From: Verrucomicrobiia bacterium
GTDB taxonomy: Bacteria > Verrucomicrobiota > Verrucomicrobiia > Limisphaerales > JADLHS01
Direction of reading: 5' to 3'
Assembly: GCA_026125285.1 (NCBI GenBank)
Contig: JAHCLO010000023.1
Coordinates: 41,855-105,854 of the forward strand
DNA: 64,000 nucleotides
Under the pieces are notes generated by a model. That model did not search any database. It was not told where the DNA came from and worked only from the letters and a program-made list of their open reading frames with translations. Both the position numbers and the translations under genes were made by a program. Shown here piece after piece: positions 6,984-53,034 of this stretch (the stretch's first letter is position 1; every line of letters begins with the position of its first letter).

Positions 6984-7535
6984 TTACGTGCGCCCAAGTC
7001 TCGTAAGTCGTTTCTCCGCACCAAGGAAATCCGCCACCGCACAAAGTCTCGTGTAGTACTCCTCTTCCATCATCCCGAGCAGCGTGGCGCCGTAGGCGAG
7101 GCAGTGATCGTCGGTGATGATGTCACCGTAGTTGAGGAGCGGGATCATGTAGGCGACGGCGAGCGGGAGGAGGTCGGGCCGGTCGCGCAGCAGGGGGCGA
7201 AGGTAGAGGACCCGGCCATCCTGCTCGGGGTTGCGCCAGTCCAGGTCCGGTTGCGCGAACTGGTGCATGGCCATCTCACCGAACTCGAAGACGAGTCGCA
7301 CGGGATGGCGGAGACAATCCGGGTCGTGCAACAGGGCATCAAGTTTGTCGGCGGTAAGCGGGCCGTGCTTCTGATGGGCGACAATCGCTTGGGCCACGAG
7401 ATGTTCGCGCAGGCTTTGCTGGCCGAGGTGTTCCAGTTCGGCAGAATTGAGTTTTCGCAACTCAACGGCGTGAGTGCTGGTCGTCATGCGTTTACAACTC
7501 TTCAATCTTTTTGCATCTGGGTCGCTCGTCTTCAC
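6984..7535 (-). CDS. hypothetical protein, first gene of the kinase cluster
   Basis: 183-aa ORF, same strand, ending 74 nt upstream of the kinase start. Composition is non-repetitive and coding-like (..LVFEFGEMAMHQFAQPDLDWRNPEQDGRVLYLRPLLRDRPDLLPLAVAYMIPLLNYGD..). Alternative start ATG 7487. No family recognised. Confidence 0.55.
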   Translation of the reverse strand: MKTSDPDAKRLKSCKRMTTSTHAVELRKLNSAELEHLGQQSLREHLVAQAIVAHQKHGPLTADKLDALLHDPDCLRHPVRLVFEFGEMAMHQFAQPDLDWRNPEQDGRVLYLRPLLRDRPDLLPLAVAYMIPLLNYGDIITDDHCLAYGATLLGMMEEEYYTRLCAVADFLGAEKRLTRLGRT

Positions 7536-7670: not shown

Positions 7671-7737
7671 TTGGCGGTGAAGCTCATTGCTACCATGGCA
7701 CATTCACCTTAACCCTCCCCATGAACCCTCGACCGGA

Positions 7738-7801
7738 GCGCGGGTCTGTGACCCGCAACGGTCTCGGCCAGTCCAGCGCGCTGCGGGTCACAGACCCGCG
7801 C
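7738..7801. repeat. perfect 20-bp-stem hairpin, REP-like, possible terminator downstream of the nap cluster
   Basis: GCGCGGGTCTGTGACCCGCA (7738-7757) and TGCGGGTCACAGACCCGCGC (7782-7801) are exact reverse complements separated by a 24-nt loop. Confidence 0.8.
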
Positions 7802-8044
7802 TCCGACCGCGCCCTCCGGTTCAGGGGTTCAAGGCGCGAGATTTCATCTGGGAGAAATCTCTCCCTGAGGGAGAGGGAATGGTCATCACCTGATTTGCTT
7901 TTGCCATAGCATTGCTGAACCGACTCCGTCGCAGGTTTTCCACAGCGTCGGCGAACGATTATCCCCCTCCCGCGGGGAGAAGGAGAACGCCGACGGATGA
8001 TCTCCAAGTTTTTCACCGTTTGTGCGTGATGTCTTGTCATGGCA

Positions 8045-8677
8045 TCACAATTCCCCTCTCAGTTCCTCCCACGGCAGCGGGCGGTCGTAGTTTTTCGATG
8101 CGTCGGGGACATGGCACTGCTGGCATTGGCTGCGCCAGGGATGCGGGGTGGCGATGCGCTGCTTGCCGGTCGGGCCGTGGCAGGAGAGGCAGTTATCGCG
8201 CATGAAGGTCTTGTGCGGGATGGTCGGCGGCGCGAGGGGATGGGCGCGCGTGCCTTTGCCCGGGAAATCCAGCCCCAGAAAATCGCTGGCGCGAAACAGG
8301 CCAACGGTCTTGTCCGAACCATTGACGTGGCATTGCTGGCATTGGGAGTACTCGGCGTGCGGTACGGGCGCGATGGCTTGCTGGCGCTTTTCGATGCGCG
8401 TCTCCCGGGCGTGACATTCGAGGCAATAACGCCCGTCGCGATCCCCGGCAAAGGTGTGCGGCATGACGGGCGGCGCGCCCAGGAACGCGCGGTCAGCGGT
8501 GATGTTTGTGCCGAGGACGTCCGGGCGGATGGGTTGGGCGAAGGAACGGGGCTGAGGGTAAACTTGGCCCGTGTTCCTGGTGATGATGGGGGAATCAGCG
8601 GCGAGCAAGAACGACGCGATGCCCGCAGCCCCGAGCAATCCAAGAATCCAGAATCGGTGGATCGCTTTCCCCCTCAC
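8045..8677 (-). CDS. napB: tetraheme cytochrome c made of two tandem NapB-like diheme units
   Basis: Four CxxCH motifs (CLECH, CQQCH, CLSCH, CQQCH) form two NapB-style units: APPVMPH..CLECH..PH..CQQCHV and APPTIPH..CLSCH..PH..CQQCHVPD. N-terminal anchor RGKAIHRFWILGLLGAAGIASFLLAA from GTG 8677. The track ORF reaches 8962, but that extension crosses palindromic repeats. Confidence 0.75.
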   Translation of the reverse strand: MRGKAIHRFWILGLLGAAGIASFLLAADSPIITRNTGQVYPQPRSFAQPIRPDVLGTNITADRAFLGAPPVMPHTFAGDRDGRYCLECHARETRIEKRQQAIAPVPHAEYSQCQQCHVNGSDKTVGLFRASDFLGLDFPGKGTRAHPLAPPTIPHKTFMRDNCLSCHGPTGKQRIATPHPWRSQCQQCHVPDASKNYDRPLPWEELRGEL

Positions 8678-8741
8678 CCAGACCCTCTCTCCCGGGGAAA
8701 CAATTCCCCGAACCAGAGTTCGCGCTTTGACCCCCTGGACT

Positions 8742-8813
8742 GTAGCAGCCGACGTGAGTCGGCTCTGACTTCTCCCCGTTCGCGGATGGAGCGGACTCAC
8801 GTCCGCTGCCACA
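8742..8813. repeat. imperfect inverted repeat pair in the napA-napB spacer
   Basis: GTAGCAGCCGACGTGAGTCGGCTCTGAC (8742-8769) and GAGCGGACTCACGTCCGCTGCCAC (8790-8813). Each arm holds its own small hairpin (CCGAC-GTGA-GTCGG; GCGGAC-TCAC-GTCCGC). The arms are near reverse complements of each other. Confidence 0.7.
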
Positions 8814-8948
8814 AGGTTCGCGGGGAGGGGACAGCAAGTGGATGTGCTCGAAACACCCGGCGATGGCGCAGCATACTCCGTCGCCGGTCTCCGGTCTGAA
8901 AACCGCTGCTTCCACGCGGCCATTTGCGAATTGGAGATGAATTTCATT

Positions 8949-11303
8949 TCACACCTTCGCAATGCCCACGGCGCATTTCTTGTAGTCCGGTTCCTTGGAC
9001 AACGGGCAATGCGCTTCGAGCGTGACCAGGTTGATCAGCGCTTCCTCGGCGAAGAACGGCACGAACACCGAGCCGCGCGCGGGAATCGAGCGGCCATTGA
9101 TCCAGGCGGGCAACAGGATTTCGCCCCGACGCGATTTGATGCGGACCTGGTCGCCGGTGGCGATGCGCATTTCGGCGGCATCCATGGGATTCAACTCGAC
9201 GTAAGCGCGCGGCATGGCGCGGTGCAACTGGGGCACGCGGCGGGTCATCGTGCCGGTGTGCCAGTGCTCGAGCACGCGCCCGGTGCAGAGCCAGAACGGA
9301 TAGGTCTTGTCCGGCACCTCGGGCGGCGCTTCGTAGGGCCGCGCCCAGACGAGCGCCTTGCCGTCCTTGAGTTTGCCCCAATAAAAATCCACCCCGCTGC
9401 CGGGCTTCACGAACGGGTCTTCGCCCTCGACGAAGCGCCGCGCCGTCTCGCGCCACGCGCCGTTCTGTTCCTGCACCACCGGCCAGCGCATCCCGCGCGC
9501 CTTGACCAGTTCGTCGTACGGCGCGAGCGCGTACTTCTTCATCATCGTGAAGGGGCGGTATTCATCGAAAAGCAACTTGTCCGCGTTGTGCGCTTTGAAC
9601 ACGTCCCACTTCCACAACTCCAGCGGCTGGCCGTCCGCGCCTTTATAGCTGAAGATAAATTCGCCGTTCTGGTTCTTCATGCCGGGATGGCCCAGTTCGA
9701 AACATTTTCGCGCGGCGGCGATGACCTGCCAGACGTCGTCGCGGGCGTCGCCGGGCGGCTCGACCATTTTGAACCATTGTTGGGTGCGGCGTTCGCTGTT
9801 GCCGAACATGCCGTTCTTTTCGATCCACATCGCGCTGGGCAGAACCACCGTGGCCAGGTCGGTGGTGGCGGTGGGATAAACATCCGAGACGACGAGGAAC
9901 CGCTCGCGCAGTTTGCTGGTGAGCCGGTTCAAGTTGGGCATGGTCTGGCCGGGGTTCGTGACTTGAACCCAGCAACCGGTAAGTTCGCCGCTTTGCAGCG
10001 CCTCGAACATCGCGACCGCGTGATGGCCGGGTTTGGCGTTGATGCGGCCGGCCGGGAGATTCCACAGTTCCTCACATTCCTTGCGATGCTCGGCGTTGGC
10101 CACGAGGCGACCACCGGGCAGCGCGTGGCCGAGCGTGCCGACTTCGCGACAGGTGCCGCATGCGCTCGGCTGGCCGGTGAGCGAAAACGCGGTGCTGCCG
10201 GGCTTGCCGAATTTGCCGCTCAGGAAATGGACGTTATAGACCAGGTTGTTGATCCACGTGCCGCGCGTGTGCTGGTTCATGCCCATGCACCAGAGCGAAA
10301 CGATCTTGCGGTTCGGGTCGGCAAAGCGGTCGGCAAGCAACTGCAACTGCGCGGGGCGCACGCCGGCCACCTTCCGCACGAATTCGGGCGTGTAGGTTTC
10401 GAGCCATTTGGCGTATTCCTCAAAGGTCATGGCTTCGCCCTCGGCATCGCCGCCCTTGCGGAAGTTGCAGTGTTTCGTCACCCAATCCTTGTCGTATTTG
10501 CCCGACTTGATCAGCAGGTGGCAGATGCCGTTGGCGATGGCAAGGTCGCCCTGCGGCGTGAACGCGATGTAATGGTCCGCCTCCTCGGTGCTGCGCGTCC
10601 GGCGCGTGCCCAGGTCAATCACCTCGACCTTCTGCCCTTTGGCGCGGCGATCAATGATGCGCGACCAGAGGACCGGATGCATCTCGGCGGGATTGTTGCC
10701 CCAGAGAATGATCGTGTCCGCCAGATCGAAGTCGTCGTAGCAACCGCTGGGTTCGTCCACGCCGTAAGTGGTGGTCATGCCGACGACGGCGCTGGCCATG
10801 CAGAGGCGGGCGTTGGGGTCCACGTGATTGTTGCCCAGACCGCCCTTCATGAACTTCATCACCACGCAGCCTTCGGGAATGGTCCATTGGCCCGAGCCAT
10901 AGATGCTGAACGTGCCCGGGCTGCGCACAATCTCCTTGGCGATCAACTCGATGGCTTCGTCCCAGGTGGCGGGCGTGAGCTTGCCGCTCTTGCGGATCAG
11001 CGGGGTGGTGAGCCGGTCTTTGCCATAGAGCGCAACGCCGGCGTGATAGCCCTTCACGCAGAGCAATCCGCGATTGACGGGGTTTTCGAGATCGCCCTGA
11101 ACGGCGACGACGCGGCCGTCCTTGACGCCGACCATCACGCCGCAGCCGGTGCCGCAGAAGCGGCAGGGTGCTTTCTGCCAGGTGAGACCGTCCGCGCCCT
11201 GGGCAGTGGCGGCAAACATTTGGCGGGGGATCGTGCCCGCGAGAACACTCGAAGCGAACGCGAGCGCGGCTTGTTTGAGGAAGTCACGACGGTTGGTTTG
11301 CAT
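8949..11303 (-). CDS. napA: periplasmic nitrate reductase catalytic subunit NapA (molybdopterin, 4Fe-4S)
   Basis: Twin-arginine signal MQTNRRDFLKQAALAF. N-terminal cluster motif KAPCRFCGTGCGVMVGVKDGRVVAVQGD..PVNRGLLCVKGY is collinear with NapA. About 785 aa. Start set at ATG 11303; the track ORF start at 11471 runs through repeats. Confidence 0.95.
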   Translation of the reverse strand: MQTNRRDFLKQAALAFASSVLAGTIPRQMFAATAQGADGLTWQKAPCRFCGTGCGVMVGVKDGRVVAVQGDLENPVNRGLLCVKGYHAGVALYGKDRLTTPLIRKSGKLTPATWDEAIELIAKEIVRSPGTFSIYGSGQWTIPEGCVVMKFMKGGLGNNHVDPNARLCMASAVVGMTTTYGVDEPSGCYDDFDLADTIILWGNNPAEMHPVLWSRIIDRRAKGQKVEVIDLGTRRTRSTEEADHYIAFTPQGDLAIANGICHLLIKSGKYDKDWVTKHCNFRKGGDAEGEAMTFEEYAKWLETYTPEFVRKVAGVRPAQLQLLADRFADPNRKIVSLWCMGMNQHTRGTWINNLVYNVHFLSGKFGKPGSTAFSLTGQPSACGTCREVGTLGHALPGGRLVANAEHRKECEELWNLPAGRINAKPGHHAVAMFEALQSGELTGCWVQVTNPGQTMPNLNRLTSKLRERFLVVSDVYPTATTDLATVVLPSAMWIEKNGMFGNSERRTQQWFKMVEPPGDARDDVWQVIAAARKCFELGHPGMKNQNGEFIFSYKGADGQPLELWKWDVFKAHNADKLLFDEYRPFTMMKKYALAPYDELVKARGMRWPVVQEQNGAWRETARRFVEGEDPFVKPGSGVDFYWGKLKDGKALVWARPYEAPPEVPDKTYPFWLCTGRVLEHWHTGTMTRRVPQLHRAMPRAYVELNPMDAAEMRIATGDQVRIKSRRGEILLPAWINGRSIPARGSVFVPFFAEEALINLVTLEAHCPLSKEPDYKKCAVGIAKV

Positions 11304-13563: not shown

Positions 13564-13690
13564 GAATCCGAAATCCGAAATCCGAATCCCGAAGGAATCC
13601 CGAAATCCGAAAACCGAACACACGGATACGTTTTCCGCTTCGGCATTCGGGCTTCGGATTTCTTTCGGATTTCGTCATTCGGATTTCAGG
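13564..13690. repeat. long imperfect inverted repeat built from CCGAAATCCGAA / TTCGGATTTCGG units
   Basis: Left arm GAATCCGAAATCCGAAATCCGAATCCCGAAGGAATCCCGAAATCCGAAAACCGAA. Right arm TTCGGCATTCGGGCTTCGGATTTCTTTCGGATTTCGTCATTCGGATTTCAGG. It fills the gap between the NrfD-like stop (13693) and the octaheme start (13546). Confidence 0.75.
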
Positions 13691-13692
13691 TT

Positions 13693-14919: not shown

Positions 14920-14927
14920 GTGAAGGT

Positions 14928-15043
14928 GTAGCGCAGACTGGCAGTCTGCCGTATCGCGGATTGGCAATCCGCGGCCATCCCAATTCTCGAGCGTCCTGCC
15001 GACTGCCAGTCGGCGGACACAGCAGATTGACAATCTGCGCTAC
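14928..15043. repeat. 116-bp MITE-like element bounded by GTAGCGCAG / CTGCGCTAC
   Basis: Ends GTAGCGCAG (14928-14936) and CTGCGCTAC (15035-15043) are reverse complements. Internal mini-hairpins: CAGACTG-G-CAGTCTG, GCGGATTG-G-CAATCCGC, CAGATTG-A-CAATCTG. Same architecture as 51587-51719. Confidence 0.8.
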
Positions 15044-15082
15044 AAGCTTGCGCACGCGCCGTGGGTTGATCGTTGTTCCAAT

Positions 15083-16935: not shown

Positions 16936-18396
16936 ATGCAGGAGTATCCCAAACATTATTGCGGTGTGTTCGGCGTGTTCGGTCATCCGAACGCGGCGGA
17001 ATTAACGTATTACGGACTGTTTGCGCTGCAACACCGAGGGCAGGAGAGCGCCGGCATCGTCACCAGTGATGGCCGCCAATTTCACAAGCACGTCGGCATG
17101 GGGCTGGTGTCGCAGGTCTTCGACGGCGACATCCTTCACAACCTCGTCGGGCATATCGCCGTTGGGCACACGCGTTATTCGACCACGGGATCATCGCATT
17201 TGCGCAACGCCCAGCCGTTGACGGCGGATTGCAGGCGCGGCCAGATCGCCGTGGCGCACAATGGCAATCTGACCAACGCCAACCAGTTGCGCGAAAGTCT
17301 CGAAGCGCGCGGCTCGATTTTTCAAACCTCGGTGGACAGCGAGATTATCGTGCATCTGCTGGCCCAGCCCAGCGTCGGCAACGGCACCAATCATCTGGTC
17401 AATGCCATTCACCGTCTCGAAGGCGCCTATTCCCTCGTCATCATGACCGAGCACGAATTGGTCGGCGTGCGGGATCCGCACGGCTTCCGTCCACTTTGTC
17501 TTGGCAAGCTGGGCGACGGCTGGGTGCTCGCCAGCGAAACCTGTGCGTTGGATTTGATCCATGCCAAGTTTGTCCGCGACGTTGAACCGGGCGAGATCAT
17601 CATCATCAACAAGGATGGACTTACGAGCCTCAAGCCGTTTCCCGATCACGCACAGCGGGCGTTCTGCATTTTTGAGTACGTGTATTTTGCGCGCCCGGAC
17701 AGCCATTTGGCGAATCAGAATGTTTACCGAGTGCGGGTGGAGATGGGCCGCCAACTTGCGCGGGAGCATCTGGTCGCTGCCGACCTCGTGGTCCCCGTGC
17801 CCGACAGCGGCAACTGCGCGGCACTGGGTTATTCCTTGGAGTCGGGCATTCCCTTTGAGATGGCCTTTGTGCGCAATCATTACATCGGCCGCAGCTTCCT
17901 TCAGCCGACCCAGCTCATCCGAGATTTCAACGTGCGCGTGAAGTTGAATCTCATCGGCGAACTGGTGCGGGGCAAGCGCGTGGTGGTGGTGGATGATTCC
18001 ATCGTGCGCGGGACGACGTGCAAGGCGCGCGTGAACAATCTCAAAGAAGCCGGCGCGAGGGAGGTCCACGTCATGGTGAGCTGCCCGCCGCACATGCATC
18101 CGTGCGTGTATGGCATTGATTTTCCCGATCGCAACAAATTAATGGCGGCCAATCATTCCCTGGATGAAATCCGCAAGTACCTCAACGCGGATTCACTGCA
18201 CTATCTTTCCCAGGATGGAATGATCCGCGCGACCGGCCAACCTCGGGACGGGTTTTGCATGGCGTGTTACGACGGTAAATACCCCGTGCCGTACGATCCC
18301 GCTGTCAGCAAGCACATCATCGAGCGCCGCAATGGCCGCGTCATGGGCTTGAGCGACGCCATAGTGGCCGAGCGTGCGCAGATCCCGCTAATTTAA
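16936..18396 (+). CDS. purF: amidophosphoribosyltransferase
   Basis: A short propeptide is followed by the catalytic Cys: MQEYPKHYCGVFGVFGHPNAAELTYYGLFALQHRGQESAGIV. PRTase motif VVVVDDSIVRGTT. C-terminal Cys ligands are present. The track ORF begins at TTG 16915. Confidence 0.95.
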   Translation: MQEYPKHYCGVFGVFGHPNAAELTYYGLFALQHRGQESAGIVTSDGRQFHKHVGMGLVSQVFDGDILHNLVGHIAVGHTRYSTTGSSHLRNAQPLTADCRRGQIAVAHNGNLTNANQLRESLEARGSIFQTSVDSEIIVHLLAQPSVGNGTNHLVNAIHRLEGAYSLVIMTEHELVGVRDPHGFRPLCLGKLGDGWVLASETCALDLIHAKFVRDVEPGEIIIINKDGLTSLKPFPDHAQRAFCIFEYVYFARPDSHLANQNVYRVRVEMGRQLAREHLVAADLVVPVPDSGNCAALGYSLESGIPFEMAFVRNHYIGRSFLQPTQLIRDFNVRVKLNLIGELVRGKRVVVVDDSIVRGTTCKARVNNLKEAGAREVHVMVSCPPHMHPCVYGIDFPDRNKLMAANHSLDEIRKYLNADSLHYLSQDGMIRATGQPRDGFCMACYDGKYPVPYDPAVSKHIIERRNGRVMGLSDAIVAERAQIPLI

Positions 18397-18469
18397 TGCG
18401 TGATGCGTGATGCGTGAAATCGGAGGTTGCCGACCGCAGGTCACGTTTCACGCATCACGCATCACGCAT
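18396..18469. terminator. perfect 24-bp-stem hairpin directly after the purF stop (REP-like, possible terminator)
   Basis: ATGCGTGATGCGTGATGCGTGAAA (18396-18419) pairs with TTTCACGCATCACGCATCACGCAT (18446-18469) across a 26-nt loop. It overlaps the last base of the TAA stop. There is no U-tract, so terminator function is inferred only. Confidence 0.5.
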
Positions 18470-32209: not shown

Positions 32210-32288
32210 GGTAGGGCGCGTCACTCCGTGCGCGCCGGTGGGAAAGCCAGGAGTCGGTGGCGGCGCGCACGGAGTGACGCGCCCTACC
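32210..32288. terminator. perfect 27-bp-stem hairpin 28 nt after the decarboxylase stop (REP-like, possible terminator)
   Basis: GGTAGGGCGCGTCACTCCGTGCGCGCC (32210-32236) and GGCGCGCACGGAGTGACGCGCCCTACC (32262-32288) are exact reverse complements across a 25-nt loop. Confidence 0.5.
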
Positions 32289-39176: not shown

Positions 39177-40961
39177 ATGTTCCTGCGTTTCAACACCCGC
39201 CACAAAGACGGCAAGCGGCATCGCTACTGGAGCGTCGTCGAGAACCGCCGCCTGCGCGCCGGCCACACCACCCAGCGCACCGTTCTCTATTTGGGCGAAA
39301 TCAATGACACGCAACAAGCCGCCTGGCGCAAGCATCTCGACGCACTCAATGAAGCCACCCAACTCACCGAACAAATCTGTCTCTTCCCCGAAGACCGCGA
39401 GGTGCCGCCGGACGTCCTCAACGGCCTGCAGGTCAAACTCTCCGAACTGACGTTGCAACATCCGCGCGTCTTCGGCGATTGCTGGCTGGCCTGCCGCTTG
39501 TGGGATGAACTCAAACTGAACTCCTTCTGGCGCAAGCGCCTGCCCGACGGCAAGGCCGAAGTCCCCTGGTGCAAAGTCCTCGAACTGCTGGCCGTGCGCC
39601 AACTCGTTTCCCCGGGCAGCAAGTGGCAGTTGCATCGCCGCTGGTTTCTCGCCAGCGCGATGGACCAGTTGCTCGATGAGGACTTTGCCCTCGCTGCCAA
39701 GAATCGGCTCTACGAATGTCTGGACCGCATTGACACCCAGCGCGCCGCGCTCTTCACGCACCTGCAAGCCCGCTGGAAAGACCTCTTCGGCGCCCCTTAC
39801 GATCTGTTGCTCTACGATCTGACTCGCCCCGTGAGATAGAGCCCGTTGAGGAATCAAGCGCCGCAGCTTCGCGTATCTCACGGGGCGAGCACTTACTTCG
39901 AGGGCCAAATGGAACAAGCGCCCAAGGCCCGACACGGCCACAGCCGCGACCGGCGCCCCGACTGCCGGCAAGTCGTCATCGCCGTGGTCCTGAGCGCGGA
40001 GGGTTTTCCGCTGGCCTACGAAATCATGCCCGGCCACACCAGCGACAAGACCACGCTGCGGCACTTTCTCCAAAAGATCGAAGCGCAATACGGCAAGGCC
40101 CAGCGCATCTGGATCATGGACCGCGGCATCCCCACCGAAGACGTGCTGCGTGAAATGCGCGCCAGCGATCCGCCCGTCTCCTATCTGGTGGGCGCGCCGC
40201 GCGCCCGGTGGCAACCATTCCGCGCCGGGTTTGAAAAGCTCCGTTGGCAGGAACTGCGCGCCGGGATCGCCGTCAAACTCCTGGTCCACGGCGAGGAACT
40301 CTACGTGCTGGTCCAAAGCCAGGGCCGGCGCGCCAAAGAAGTCGCCATGCGCCGACGCCGACTCGCCCGGCTCTTATGCACCTTGCGTGCGCTGCGGCGG
40401 GTGCGCCAACGCCCGTGGAAAGGCGACACGCTCCTGCACAAACTCGGCGCCGCGCACAAGGAAGCCGGCGGCGCGTGGCGTTTTGTCAAAATCACCTTGC
40501 CCACAGCGCGCCAGAGCGTCCGCCCCGACCCCTTCAAATTTGCATTGCTCAAAGATGCGTTGAAGCAAGCGCAAGCACGCGACGGTTACACGTTATTGCG
40601 CGCCTTCCGCGCCGGCGACCAGGCCGCGCCCCTCTGGGAACGCTACCTGCAACTGGGCGAAATCGAAGGCGCCTTCAAAACCCTCAAGAGCGACCTGCAT
40701 CTGCGCCCCATCCGGCATCACGTCGAGGCGCGGATCGAGGCGCACATCTTGGTCTGCTTTCGGGCGTATTGTTTGCACGTCACGTTGCGCAAGCGCCTGG
40801 CAGCCCACGCGCCGGGCCTGACCACGCGCGAAGTGCTGGCGACGCTCTGGCGCTTTGATTGGCGATGGGAAGGAGAAAGTGGTGGCAATGTTTCGGCCTT
40901 GAGCAGAGGGAACGCCATCGGCCGTGGCGCGGAGTTGCACTCTGCCGTATCGCGCATTTGA
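39177..40961 (+). pseudogene. IS1634-family (IS4 superfamily) DDE transposase, interrupted by an in-frame stop-bearing palindrome and with a replaced 3' end
   Basis: Two same-frame ORFs, 39177..39839 and 39846..40961. They read ...LLLYDLT[63-bp insert]STYFEGQMEQAPKARHGHSRDRRPDCRQVV...IWIMDRGI...YLQLGEIEGAFKTLKSDLHLRPIRH, matching the IS1634-type YDLTSTYFEG/D/D/E layout as I remember it. Similarity is lost near 40855, where a palindromic repeat begins. Confidence 0.8.
39825..39887. repeat. 63-bp palindromic insertion (14-bp perfect stems) inside the transposase ORF
   Basis: CGCCCCGTGAGATA (39825-39838) and TATCTCACGGGGCG (39874-39887) are exact reverse complements across a 35-nt loop. Removing 39825-39887 restores CTG ACT AGC ACT TAC TTC GAG GGC, which is LTSTYFEG. 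The length is a multiple of 3, and TAG at 39837-39839 is the only stop. Confidence 0.85.
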
Positions 40962-41038
40962 AATCCGCAGACGGTGGCGGGCTGCCGGCGCCTGCTGAAT
41001 GCAACTCGGCGATACAGCAGACTGCAAGTCTGCGCAAC
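40931..41038. repeat. degenerate member of the GTAGCGCAG-family palindromic repeats
   Basis: Shares CTGCCGTATCGCG and TCGGCGATACAGCAGACTGCAAGTCTGCGC with the elements at 14928 and 51587. It starts where transposase homology ends. Confidence 0.6.
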
Positions 41039-51552: not shown

Positions 51553-51586
51553 ATTGCGATGGATGCAGGACGAGCCTCCTCGGTTT

Positions 51587-51719
51587 GTAGCGCAGGATTG
51601 CATCCTGCTGTATCGCGGATTTTCAACCCGCAACCGCCCGGCAGACTCAAGGCGTAGTTACATTTCGACAATCCGCCGAATGCAATTCGGCGATACGGCA
51701 GATTGACAATCTGCGCTAC
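51587..51719. repeat. 133-bp MITE-like element bounded by GTAGCGCAG / CTGCGCTAC
   Basis: Ends at 51587-51595 and 51711-51719 are reverse complements. Internal mini-hairpins: CAGGATTGCATCCTG, CCGAATGCAATTCGG, CAGATTGACAATCTG. Same family as 14928-15043. Confidence 0.8.
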
Positions 51720-51816
51720 ACCGCGCCCTCACTTGCGGCGGGACTGGCCAAACTGCCGCACCCCCGTTGCGCGAGCGTTGCTTGTCTCGCACGTTGAACT
51801 CCGCTATTTTGCGCGC

Positions 51817-53034
51817 GTGATTCACGACGCTTCGCTCGATGAGCTGCTGCAACGGGTGTGGGACGGCCAGCGCATTACACCGTCCGACGCGTTGCGGCTT
51901 TATCATCTCCCGTTGGAGGAACTGGGCGCGCTGGCGGATCGTCGCCGACAACTCGCCAAAGCGGACGCTTACGATGGACGTGGCAACGCGATCGTCACCT
52001 TCAACATTGACCGCAACGTCAACTACACCAACGTTTGCAATGTCTATTGCAAGTTCTGCGCGTTCTATCGCACCGAGAAGGATGACGACGCCTATGTCAT
52101 TTCCCTCGAAGAAATGGATCGCAAGATTGAAGAGACGGTGGCTCTCGGCGGCACGCAGATTTTGATGCAGGGCGGACATCACCCCAAGCTGACCAAACAG
52201 TGGTATCTGGATTTGCTTGCGCACATCAAAGCAAAGTTTCCGCAGGTGAACATTCACGGCTTCAGCCCGAGCGAATTCATTCATTTCCGCGACGTGTTCA
52301 ACGAACCGCTGTACAAGATCATCGGCGACTTCAAAGCCGCCGGGCTTGGTTCTATCCCCGGTGGCGGCGGGGAGATTCTCGTGGACCGAGTACGGCAACG
52401 CATCGCGCCGCTCAAAGCCATGAGCGACGACTGGCTCGAAGTCATGGACGTGGCGCATCGGCTCGGCTTGTATTCGAGCGCGACGATGATGTTCGGCCAC
52501 GTGGAAACGGTGGAGGATCGCATCGAGCATCTGGAACGGTTGCGGGCGCAGCAGGACAAGTCACTTGCGCACGCGAACGGAGCGCGGCTGTCCTCAGCCG
52601 CAGCGGCTCCAAGCGCAAGCCCCTCGTCTGAAGATTCCCGTCACCTTTCCGCCGGCGAAAGTGCTGCGGCTGGGACAGCCGCGCTCCAGGGCCATTTCAC
52701 GGCGTTCATCTGCTGGACGTTTCAAGCCGAGCACACCAAGCTCCGCGCGCCCACCGTTGGCGCGCACGACTATCTGCGCACCCAGGCGCTCGGCCGCATC
52801 TATCTCGATAACTTCGAGAACGTGCAAAGCTCGTGGGTCACGCAAGGACCGGACATTGGCCAGATCGCGCTCAAATTTGGCGCGAACGATCTCGGCAGCA
52901 TCATGATCGAGGAAAACGTCGTCTCGCAGGCCGGCACCACCTTCCGCATGACCGTGGCCGACATGCAACGGCTTATCACCGAACTGGGTTACAAGCCGCA
53001 TCAAAGAGACAATTGGTATCGCCTGGTGAATTGA
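51817..53034 (+). CDS. radical SAM enzyme of the futalosine menaquinone pathway (MqnE/MqnC family) carrying an about 40-aa low-complexity insertion
   Basis: Cluster motif NVNYTNVCNVYCKFCAFYR. GGGGEILVDRVRQRIAPLK, ATMMFGHVETVEDRIEHLERLRAQQD and FTAFICWTFQ. Start chosen at GTG 51817; the track ORF start at 51703 lies in a repeat. I cannot separate MqnE from MqnC by eye. Confidence 0.8.
   Translation: MIHDASLDELLQRVWDGQRITPSDALRLYHLPLEELGALADRRRQLAKADAYDGRGNAIVTFNIDRNVNYTNVCNVYCKFCAFYRTEKDDDAYVISLEEMDRKIEETVALGGTQILMQGGHHPKLTKQWYLDLLAHIKAKFPQVNIHGFSPSEFIHFRDVFNEPLYKIIGDFKAAGLGSIPGGGGEILVDRVRQRIAPLKAMSDDWLEVMDVAHRLGLYSSATMMFGHVETVEDRIEHLERLRAQQDKSLAHANGARLSSAAAAPSASPSSEDSRHLSAGESAAAGTAALQGHFTAFICWTFQAEHTKLRAPTVGAHDYLRTQALGRIYLDNFENVQSSWVTQGPDIGQIALKFGANDLGSIMIEENVVSQAGTTFRMTVADMQRLITELGYKPHQRDNWYRLVN
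52587..52679. repeat. 93-bp palindrome embedded in frame in the Mqn gene
   Basis: GCTGTCCTCAGCCGCAGC (52587-52604) pairs with GCTGCGGCTGGGACAGC (52663-52679), giving 17 bp with one bulged T. It encodes the low-complexity stretch LSSAAAAPSASPSSEDSRHLSAGESAAAGTA. Confidence 0.75.

Follow-up and report, generated by a model that had tools for sequence, protein, structure and literature searches.

What is a long palindromic DNA segment doing inside the coding sequence of a radical S-adenosylmethionine (SAM) enzyme, and how has the reading frame of that enzyme survived it? The question is raised by mqnC, the gene for cyclic dehypoxanthinyl futalosine synthase, in a 64,000-nucleotide stretch of a contig from a Verrucomicrobiia bacterium (GenBank JAHCLO010000023.1, positions 41,855 to 105,854 of the forward strand; hereafter the window, from whose first letter nucleotide positions are counted unless a locus handle such as L114 precedes them). 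We conclude, with a probability of roughly 0.8, that the segment is a dispersed, non-autonomous doublet of repetitive extragenic palindromic (REP) sequences, similar to a REPIN (REP doublet forming a hairpin), that was most likely mobilized in trans by a REP-associated tyrosine transposase (RAYT) and that MqnC tolerates as a passenger, in frame, within a loop permissive to insertion.

The reading frame of the host gene is intact through the palindrome, and the 405-aa product is 100% identical to a protein, P0001, deposited for a metagenome-assembled genome (MAG) from Verrucomicrobiae bacterium. The original prediction, an earlier annotation made from the window's sequence, had placed the gene in the MqnE/MqnC family of radical-SAM enzymes. 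The radical-SAM assignment stands, and within that pair the protein is MqnC: it scores 434.2 bits with the NCBIfam MqnC equivalog TIGR03699 (cut-off 428.1) and fails the NCBIfam MqnE model with a score of only 309 (cut-off 434.55). Pfam matches are Radical_SAM at residues 68-242 and CofH_C at residues 294-403; the radical-SAM CxxxCxxC motif reads CNVYCKFC, with C74, C78, and C81 each at least 90% conserved. The TIGR03699 score, the CxxxCxxC motif, and the CofH_C domain agree that the host gene is mqnC.

The palindrome consists of two inverted-repeat arms, of 26 and 25 nt, that are complementary throughout save for one bulged T at position 52594 (Table 1); a repeat search resolves them into perfect sub-arms of 15 nt (52579-52593/52673-52687) and 10 nt (52595-52604/52663-52672). 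The 17-bp stem with one bulge originally described at 52587-52604/52663-52679 is the inner part of this structure: palindrome and bulge are real, and the length was underestimated. Folded as DNA, the region reaches -39.3 kcal/mol (z = -4.4), and none of 200 shuffled sequences is as stable. Either arm forms a hairpin of its own, with 7 bp in the stem and 3-4 nt in the loop, a short imperfect palindrome as in REP units, and the element would thus be read as two inverted REP hairpins approximately 58 nt apart. We take the inserted unit as the arms, the spacer, and one flanking base on each side, because a C precedes the arm in 56 of the 70 complete family copies described below and a G follows in 50 of the 70. 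The unit encodes N254 (third base)-GARLSSAAAAPSASPSSEDSRHLSAGESAAAGTAAL-Q291 (first two bases), which agrees with the peptide quoted and the low complexity noted in the original prediction. Rfam 15 contains no family that matches the element at its gathering threshold; the two matches obtained are at chance level (22.8 bits against a threshold of 70, and 14.3 bits against a threshold of 100). An intein or intron is ruled out by the NCBIfam and Pfam results for the host protein, which contain no such domains, and a CRISPR-like array is ruled out by the orientation of the repeats at the mqnC locus, which are inverted rather than direct.

Comparison with orthologues indicates that the segment is an insertion and not a conserved feature of the family, because many close orthologues have an empty site and most of the wider family has four residues there. 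The mqnC loop in the window is 46 residues long. Among 37 diverse representatives of the wider family that were aligned, 26 have four residues at the site, mostly ETGG (..LQDETGGF..), 10 have 8-17 residues, often of the form ..SL.....G, and one has 40 residues. Among close orthologues (77-89% identity), an empty site, QQD-KSKG-FTAF, occurs in 23 distinct DNA sequences. In the solved MqnE structure 6XI9, which can be aligned up to the site from either side, nothing separates positions 278 and 279 (..QQDKT/GGF..). The insert amounts to 42 aa over the canonical form and to 37 aa over the 9-residue loop of close relatives; homologues had indeed been expected to hold only a few residues here, and the predicted protein to be about 40 aa longer than the family norm. 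Removal of the unit in silico restores an AAG codon and yields the loop KSLAHAKGH, comparable to KSLGYKKGH and KSLGYRKGH in the orthologues at L025 and L057, a reconstruction that would put the insertion within codon 7 of a 9-residue loop. A 40-residue low-complexity insert is also present at the same loop of an MqnC-like protein from another lineage (P0243, a 405-aa representative with 55% identity).

A structure model computed with diverse representatives has a mean predicted local distance difference test score (pLDDT) of 93.1 and a predicted template-modeling score (pTM) of 0.91, and matches the MqnE crystal structures 6XIG and 6XI9 with template-modeling (TM) scores of 0.80-0.86; a first model, computed with 42 close homologues, had a mean pLDDT of 55.6 and was discarded. 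In the accepted model, a predicted helix (residues 232-263) extends into the beginning of the insert, coil follows over residues 264-293, and a predicted strand (residues 294-301) comes next; the insert maps to the low-confidence loop between helix and strand, with a pLDDT of about 52-55 for residues 271-290. In a TIM-type barrel, helix-to-strand loops lie on the face opposite the catalytic end, and by this topology the insert loop would project from the barrel face opposite the Fe-S/SAM site. According to the mechanism that we propose, the element would have entered a surface loop of MqnC that had 9 residues, at its codon 7; the ribosome would read through it, because its 111 bp hold no stop codon in frame; and MqnC would thereby gain a 37-residue Ala/Ser/Gly/Pro-rich loop, probably disordered, which connects a helix with the barrel strand that follows and lies between the Radical_SAM and CofH_C matches. 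Most likely, the enzyme tolerates the insert as a passenger that plays no part in catalysis.

The source of the sequence is a MAG, and repeats are classic assembler break points, so that a chimeric join or a collapsed repeat inside mqnC might be suspected. Independent assemblies (NCBI, ENA, JGI, and Logan), however, contain the same element, with nucleotide position and frame unchanged; the ORF (open reading frame) is uninterrupted, and orthologues can be aligned to the left and the right flank alike; we regard the probability of an assembly or binning artefact as negligible.

The element in mqnC is one member of a repeat family with dispersed copies. Species-representative genomes scanned with the pattern GGAGYGCGGNNGTMCN{3,4}CCGCAGC contain at least 144 arms in at least 120 loci, none of which, among the matches listed, overlaps the window or lies at the mqnC site; the stem sequence is not unique to this locus. 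Labels of Verrucomicrobiota, Limisphaerales, Pedosphaera, or Akkermansia appear in 59 of the 80 locus titles shown, the rest being mostly Acidobacteriota or Planctomycetota, and several MAGs match on 3-5 different contigs, among the matches listed. The exact 26-nt left arm recurs at least 14 times, at other loci in other genomes, and the reverse complement of the right arm, GGAGCGCGGCTGTCCCAGCCGCAGC, recurs at least 13 times elsewhere. The arms share the design GGAG(C/T)GCGG-stem-loop-stem-CCGCAGC, in which the constancy of GGAG is built into the search pattern; the variable stem positions are nearly always complementary across copies (CTG/CAG, CCG/CGG, GTG/CAC, GCG/CGC, and ACG/CGT). Perfect doublets number at least 12, with arm starts 81-85 nt apart (84 nt in the mqnC copy), and a relaxed partner search pairs at least 87 arms and yields at least 70 complete elements of 103-111 bp and ~70% G+C. 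The length of the spacer is constant and its sequence variable among copies; a GAA..TTC-like center is present in 20 of the 70 elements, and the center in the window is GAAGATTCC. The 70 elements show no target-site duplication: direct repeats of 2-8 nt flanking them are no commoner than under shuffled pairing. At one locus of a Verrucomicrobiota MAG (L099, 3742-4242), five elements of 107-108 bp stand head to tail, 11 nt apart with a period of 119, in a cluster like a bacterial interspersed mosaic element (BIME).

Members of the family also lie in frame in other genes. Long ORFs run through many of the copies, and in at least six genes confirmed by Pfam the element is in frame between or inside domains (Table 1). 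The insert positions in ClpB and in the Ser/Thr kinase are ones expected to matter for function. The intragenic copies use various frames and orientations and encode peptides such as GARVSPPAA...AAAGDSRAP and TERGCPSRS...AAGWTPALH. Stop codons are absent from about 66% of the reading frames that cross family members, and a good part of the insertions made at random would accordingly leave the ORF open. In substance, then, the original proposal that palindromes like the Rickettsia palindromic elements (RPE) colonize coding sequence and leave the ORF open holds in six further genes; the name does not, as a REP doublet (REPIN-like) fits better.

The dispersed copies bear directly on a second explanation of the locus, that the segment is a lineage-specific protein loop that arose by ordinary expansion and has a function at the protein level, for example as an interaction surface, with the palindrome incidental. 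Conservation of the flanking residues, KSL..(R/Y) and G(H/N), would fit such a loop, as would the age and wide distribution of the 9-residue loop variant in the family and the conservation of the peptide ends, GAR.SS.AA and AAAGTAAL, in 30 orthologues. Those peptide ends, however, are the DNA arms of a repeat that is present at the at least 120 other loci in other frames and orientations, and the amino-acid covariation between them tracks base pairing and not chemistry. Moreover, the middle of the peptide is hypervariable and of low complexity, the closest relative carries an unrelated sequence at the site, and the structure model gives the loop low confidence. The scans for dispersed copies already largely refute this explanation, and we consider it very improbable.

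To which known system, then, does the family belong? REP and REPIN elements are mobilized by RAYT (Y1/HUH) transposases (Bertels and Rainey, 2011; PMC3116915), and Di Nocera et al. (2013; PMC3733652) have described in-frame intragenic REPs, which are most numerous in the verrucomicrobium Opitutus terrae. In the latter study, over half of the intragenic REP inserts are dimers or groups that encode 20-30 residues, some families have degenerate tags (GYAG, GTRG, and GTGG), different REPs occupy about the same site of Xanthomonas recB, and some RPE families are noted as later reclassified as CGTC-type REPs; the text of that paper, supplementary tables aside, contains no match to a GGAG tag. The mqnC family resembles REPs and REPINs in that its arms are short imperfect palindromes with a conserved 5' tag, inverted around a spacer of conserved length and variable sequence; in that it is dispersed, with matches on 3-5 contigs in several MAGs and a tandem arrangement in places; and in that it makes no target duplication. 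REPs of the same design flank four RAYT genes in other genomes. The mqnC family differs in that at least ten families occur at one mqnC site, well beyond the single same-site case published, and in the tag and the RAYT link, which are weighed below.

RAYT genes were sought with a regular expression and a purpose-built hidden Markov model in the window and in all fetched loci, and only four loci matched (Table 1). The L114 ORF encodes a Y1_Tnp protein with HUH and Tyr motifs, has REPs of this family on both flanks, and has homologues named 'REP element-mobilizing transposase RayT' by their sources; L205-L207 hold three such homologues, and at L206, almost identical doublet sequence lies on either side of the RAYT gene. 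A RAYT gene flanked by its own REPs is the classic arrangement and points to Y1-type mobilization, which we infer for the organism of the window. We favor RAYT mobilization because the four RAYT genes are REP-flanked, because target duplication is absent, and because the hairpin rather than the sequence is conserved. Most likely, a RAYT-type Y1 (HUH) transposase acting in trans would recognize the REP hairpins in single-stranded DNA.

Two other kinds of mobile palindrome invite comparison. RPE are said to go back to work of Ogata et al. of 2000 and 2002. Like the mqnC family, they are palindromic repeats (~100-150 bp in RPE) that occupy the reading frames of many genes unrelated to one another, some of them essential, and are translated as extra peptide segments, which in RPE are reported to lie on protein surfaces; summaries are given in PMC3733652 and PMC10969869. 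In contrast to the mqnC family, which has ~70% G+C and occurs in free-living Verrucomicrobiota and Acidobacteriota, RPE are AT-rich and occur in obligate intracellular alphaproteobacteria. Host phylum and base composition make membership of the mqnC element in RPE implausible, and the likeness is one of mechanism only. Bacterial MITEs (miniature transposable elements with inverted repeats; Correia/NEMIS, RUP, ERIC, and others) have their origin in DDE-type insertion sequences and duplicate the target site (PMC10969869). The mqnC family shares with them small size, absence of coding content, terminal inverted repeats, many copies, and sometimes an intragenic position; it differs in making no target duplication (70 copies) and in that each arm is itself a hairpin, as in REPs. 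The ends of a DDE transposase gene in the window (39846-40961) are unrelated to the mqnC element. In-frame REPs and RPEs have already been published, and the behavior is therefore known. What is new, as far as we have checked, is the GGAG-tagged family of 103-111-bp doublets, the distribution of that family among uncultured Verrucomicrobiota and Acidobacteriota, and the crowding of so many distinct repeat families at one site of one gene.

That site is a hot spot. The only internal region with insertions or deletions among 120 close orthologues is at reference positions 252-290. We compared the site in about 200 mqnC sequences from two overlapping sources: the loop has four residues (empty) in 26 sequences, 9-10 residues in 7, and 14-18 residues built on a (GCGGAAA)n heptamer repeat in 17; it holds an insert of type A, the GGAG family of the window element, in 37, an insert of types B to H or the GTAG-tagged doublet found intergenically in the window (32210-32288) in 78, and unclassified inserts in a further 37. 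Loop length ranges across orthologues from 4 to 61 residues, and at least ten different palindromic repeat families occupy the site. Inserts of 27 residues or more all fold as a long hairpin, and most start with GTAG; several of the loop-insert families are also present outside mqnC, in the flanks of other loci. A heptamer-based loop, (GCGGAAA)3 encoding 16 residues, 'ISLKRKAESGNEKMGN', is found in L037, L038, and L066; heptamer repeats like it make up two intergenic hairpins of the window. In L030, the loop is 18 aa long, KSLARAQAGGAGSSSPAG, and resembles a single type-A arm (GGAGCGGGGTCGTCCTCGCCGGCG); it may be a solo REP or the remnant of a deletion within a doublet.

The site differs even between near relatives, most clearly in L001. 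This locus shares the gene order GH116-mqnC-tgt with the window, and over 12 kb their DNA is 87-93% identical, but its mqnC loop (L001 10070-10160) holds a different doublet, the arms of which, GGTAGGGCGCGTCACTCCGTGCGCGCCG, are identical to those of the intergenic element at 32210-32288. Sequences around the L001 insert such as GCTGCGGG..GGCAGCGCTCCGG hint at remnants of type-A arms, but do not align well enough to convince. The arms of the intergenic doublet at 32210-32288 recur in L024, L034, L040, and L081; L001 and L002 also have them a short way upstream of mqnC. In the window, a further GTAG-type doublet directly precedes mqnC (Table 1) and shows that the neighborhood is REP-rich; a related sister of it lies at 14927-15044, and both are of the form TGTAGCGCAG...CTGCGCTACA. 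Inserts are also nested: an F-type doublet lies within a (GCGGAAA)n repeat in L009 and L016, and composites occur in L017, L047, and L053. Core identity over the 290 flanking residues is ~0.90 both within and between insert types, and up to 97% between type-A and empty orthologues. A neighbor-joining tree and a nearest-neighbor analysis of these 290 residues were uninformative for dating gains and losses; the core is too conserved for events to be counted from a protein tree.

Several observations weigh against the explanation that we prefer. Regarding the family, its 5' tag is GGAG and not the canonical GTAG or CGTC, and the window contains no further copies with the same arms, as judged from a search allowing three mismatches and a short-word BLAST search. 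A loose motif, GGAG[CT]GCGG-N8-11-CCGC, does exceed chance, with four occurrences in the window against 0.14 expected; the doublet at 7734-7805 is the only other member of the GGAGCGCGG...CCGC kind in the 64 kb. Regarding mobilization, the RAYT link is seen only in other genomes and with other stem subtypes: the four RAYT loci carry ACG/CGT or GCG/CGC stems, one (L114) is labeled Acidobacteriota, L205-L207 are without a label, and none of the four is labeled Verrucomicrobiota. No RAYT gene was found in the window or beside copies in Verrucomicrobiota-labeled records, and among the listed loci only L114 has one. Regarding the insertion itself, the arm-to-arm length of copies in other genes is 107-110 bp and not a multiple of three, and element boundaries are for that reason not fully defined. 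Regarding the site, finally, the four type-A copies for which DNA is available (the window, L003, L004, and L005) lie at the identical nucleotide in identical orientation, and the 30 type-A orthologues represented by protein only have the same peptide signature and keep the two local hairpins by compensatory changes, with 29 of the 30 fitting a preserved left-arm hairpin. The residue pairs at the left-arm stem are (V,P) in 10 orthologues, (A,P) in 9, (P,A) in 6, and (L,A) in 4, the exception being (E,P); the outer pair of the type-A arms likewise covaries, GGAGTG/CACTCC versus GGAGCG/CGCTCC. A single old neutral insertion should lose its hairpins, so that a further process is needed: conversion by dispersed copies, insertion at the same site more than once, or selection that acts on the hairpin.

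If selection on the hairpin is the addition required, the hairpin might have been co-opted as an intragenic nucleic-acid signal, one that slows the ribosome for folding or Fe-S loading or that affects mRNA stability, with selection acting on the hairpin and not on the peptide. The RNA fold of the region is very stable (-68.3 kcal/mol, z = -4.4), the 29 type-A orthologues keep the hairpin by compensatory codon pairs while the spacer peptide is hypervariable, inserts of every family that are at least 27 aa long share the hairpin fold, and the site lies between the Radical_SAM and CofH_C matches. Against these points, many orthologues with 77-79% identity are empty (four residues) and nearly all distant members of the family have no insert, from which it follows that the hairpin is dispensable for the enzyme. 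The same compensatory stem variants occur among the dispersed copies, and the covariation could therefore reflect subtypes, gene conversion, or re-insertion and not local selection; the copies in six unrelated genes, moreover, speak against a role specific to mqnC. We consider such a signal unlikely, although less so than a functional protein loop.

According to the hypothesis of repeated insertion, the mqnC loop would be a self-reinforcing landing pad, in which, once a hairpin is resident, RAYT-type machinery or recombination directed by the hairpin leads to repeated insertion, nesting, and swapping of REP families at the same nucleotide, and in which gene conversion or selection actively maintains the hairpins. 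This hypothesis is suggested by the nested inserts, by the uncoupling of insert type from core similarity, and by an insertion point that is shared although the arms of the four type-A DNA copies belong to different family subtypes; we put it forward tentatively, as a possibility with the odds against it. In the explanation that we prefer, too, the hot spot has two causes: the first, which the orthologue comparison shows, is that the loop is the only place in MqnC that accepts changes in length, and the second, to which the nested inserts point, is that a resident hairpin may attract or exchange with further REPs. If the loop is such a landing pad, a gene otherwise free of insertions and deletions would be a fast-turnover record of the REP populations of the genome. 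The interest of the hot spot is greater if it is targeted rather than merely permissive.

For the preferred explanation, a REPIN-like doublet carried as a passenger, the implications extend beyond this locus. Colonization of reading frames by palindromes, seen first in Rickettsia and then in Opitutus, is widespread in uncultured soil and freshwater Verrucomicrobiota. Annotators and users of structure prediction should expect low-complexity loops of 20-60 residues and of REP origin in conserved enzymes, and should mask such loops in alignments of colonized genes; the arm motif of the GGAG family can serve as a search pattern for more copies. The mqnC loop is a natural experiment, in that one site of an enzyme otherwise free of insertions and deletions is empty or holds any of at least ten repeat families among close relatives. 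It could serve to measure rates of REP gain, loss, and replacement and to test whether resident hairpins draw insertions.

Table 1. Positions of the mqnC element, its parts, and related features in the window (no prefix) and in other loci (L prefix).
Feature	Position	Strand	Description
mqnC (cyclic dehypoxanthinyl futalosine synthase)	51817-53034, including stop	+	GTG start, 405 aa; host gene of the element
Inserted unit	52578-52688	+	REP doublet (REPIN-like) plus one flanking base on each side; 111 bp = 37 codons
Left arm (one REP)	52579-52604	+	GGAGC-GCGGCTG-TCCT-CAGCCGC-AGC; own 7-bp hairpin 52584-52601
Spacer	52605-52662	+	58 nt; center GAAGATTCC at 52630-52638; encodes low-complexity Ala/Ser/Pro stretch
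Right arm (inverted REP)	52663-52687	+	GCT-GCGGCTG-GGA-CAGCCGC-GCTCC; own 7-bp hairpin 52666-52682
Second doublet of the same GGAGCGCGG...CCGC design	7734-7805		Intergenic, between ORFs 6984-7535 (-) and 8045-8962 (-); arms GGAGCGCGGGTCTGTGACCCGC, TGT loop, 18-nt spacer
GTAG-tagged REP doublet	32210-32288		Intergenic; perfect 28-nt arms
GTAG-type doublet TGTAGCGCAGG...	51586-51720		Gap between GH116 gene and mqnC
RAYT (Y1_Tnp) gene	L114 4587-5568		Flanked by or overlapping GGAGCGCGG..CCGC REPs or doublets
RAYT (Y1_Tnp) gene	L205 3001-3660		As L114
RAYT (Y1_Tnp) gene	L206 2896-3690		As L114
RAYT (Y1_Tnp) gene	L207 840-1560		As L114
RecG	L089		In-frame copy (Pfam)
HypF	L094		In-frame copy (Pfam)
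DUF3516 helicase	L112		In-frame copy (Pfam); homologous, near-identical flank in L100
ClpB	L150 1458-1565		In-frame copy between AAA-lid and second AAA (AAA_2) matches (Pfam)
CcsA	L086		In-frame copy (Pfam)
Ser/Thr kinase	L129 7594-7700		In-frame copy in activation loop, directly after DFG motif (Pfam)

Two further features of the window involve inverted repeats. The DDE transposase gene mentioned above, a DDE_Tnp_1 ORF that is probably the transposase case to which the original prediction referred, has a stretched Pfam match, 285 residues for 180 profile positions, and inverted repeats at both ends (39823-39889 and 40918-41021): the one at the 5' end is perfect over 16 nt, and the one that covers the 3' end is REP-like. 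Hairpins built of heptamer repeats lie in intergenic sequence at 13565-13692, (AATCCGA)n, and at 18396-18469, (ATGCGTG)n.

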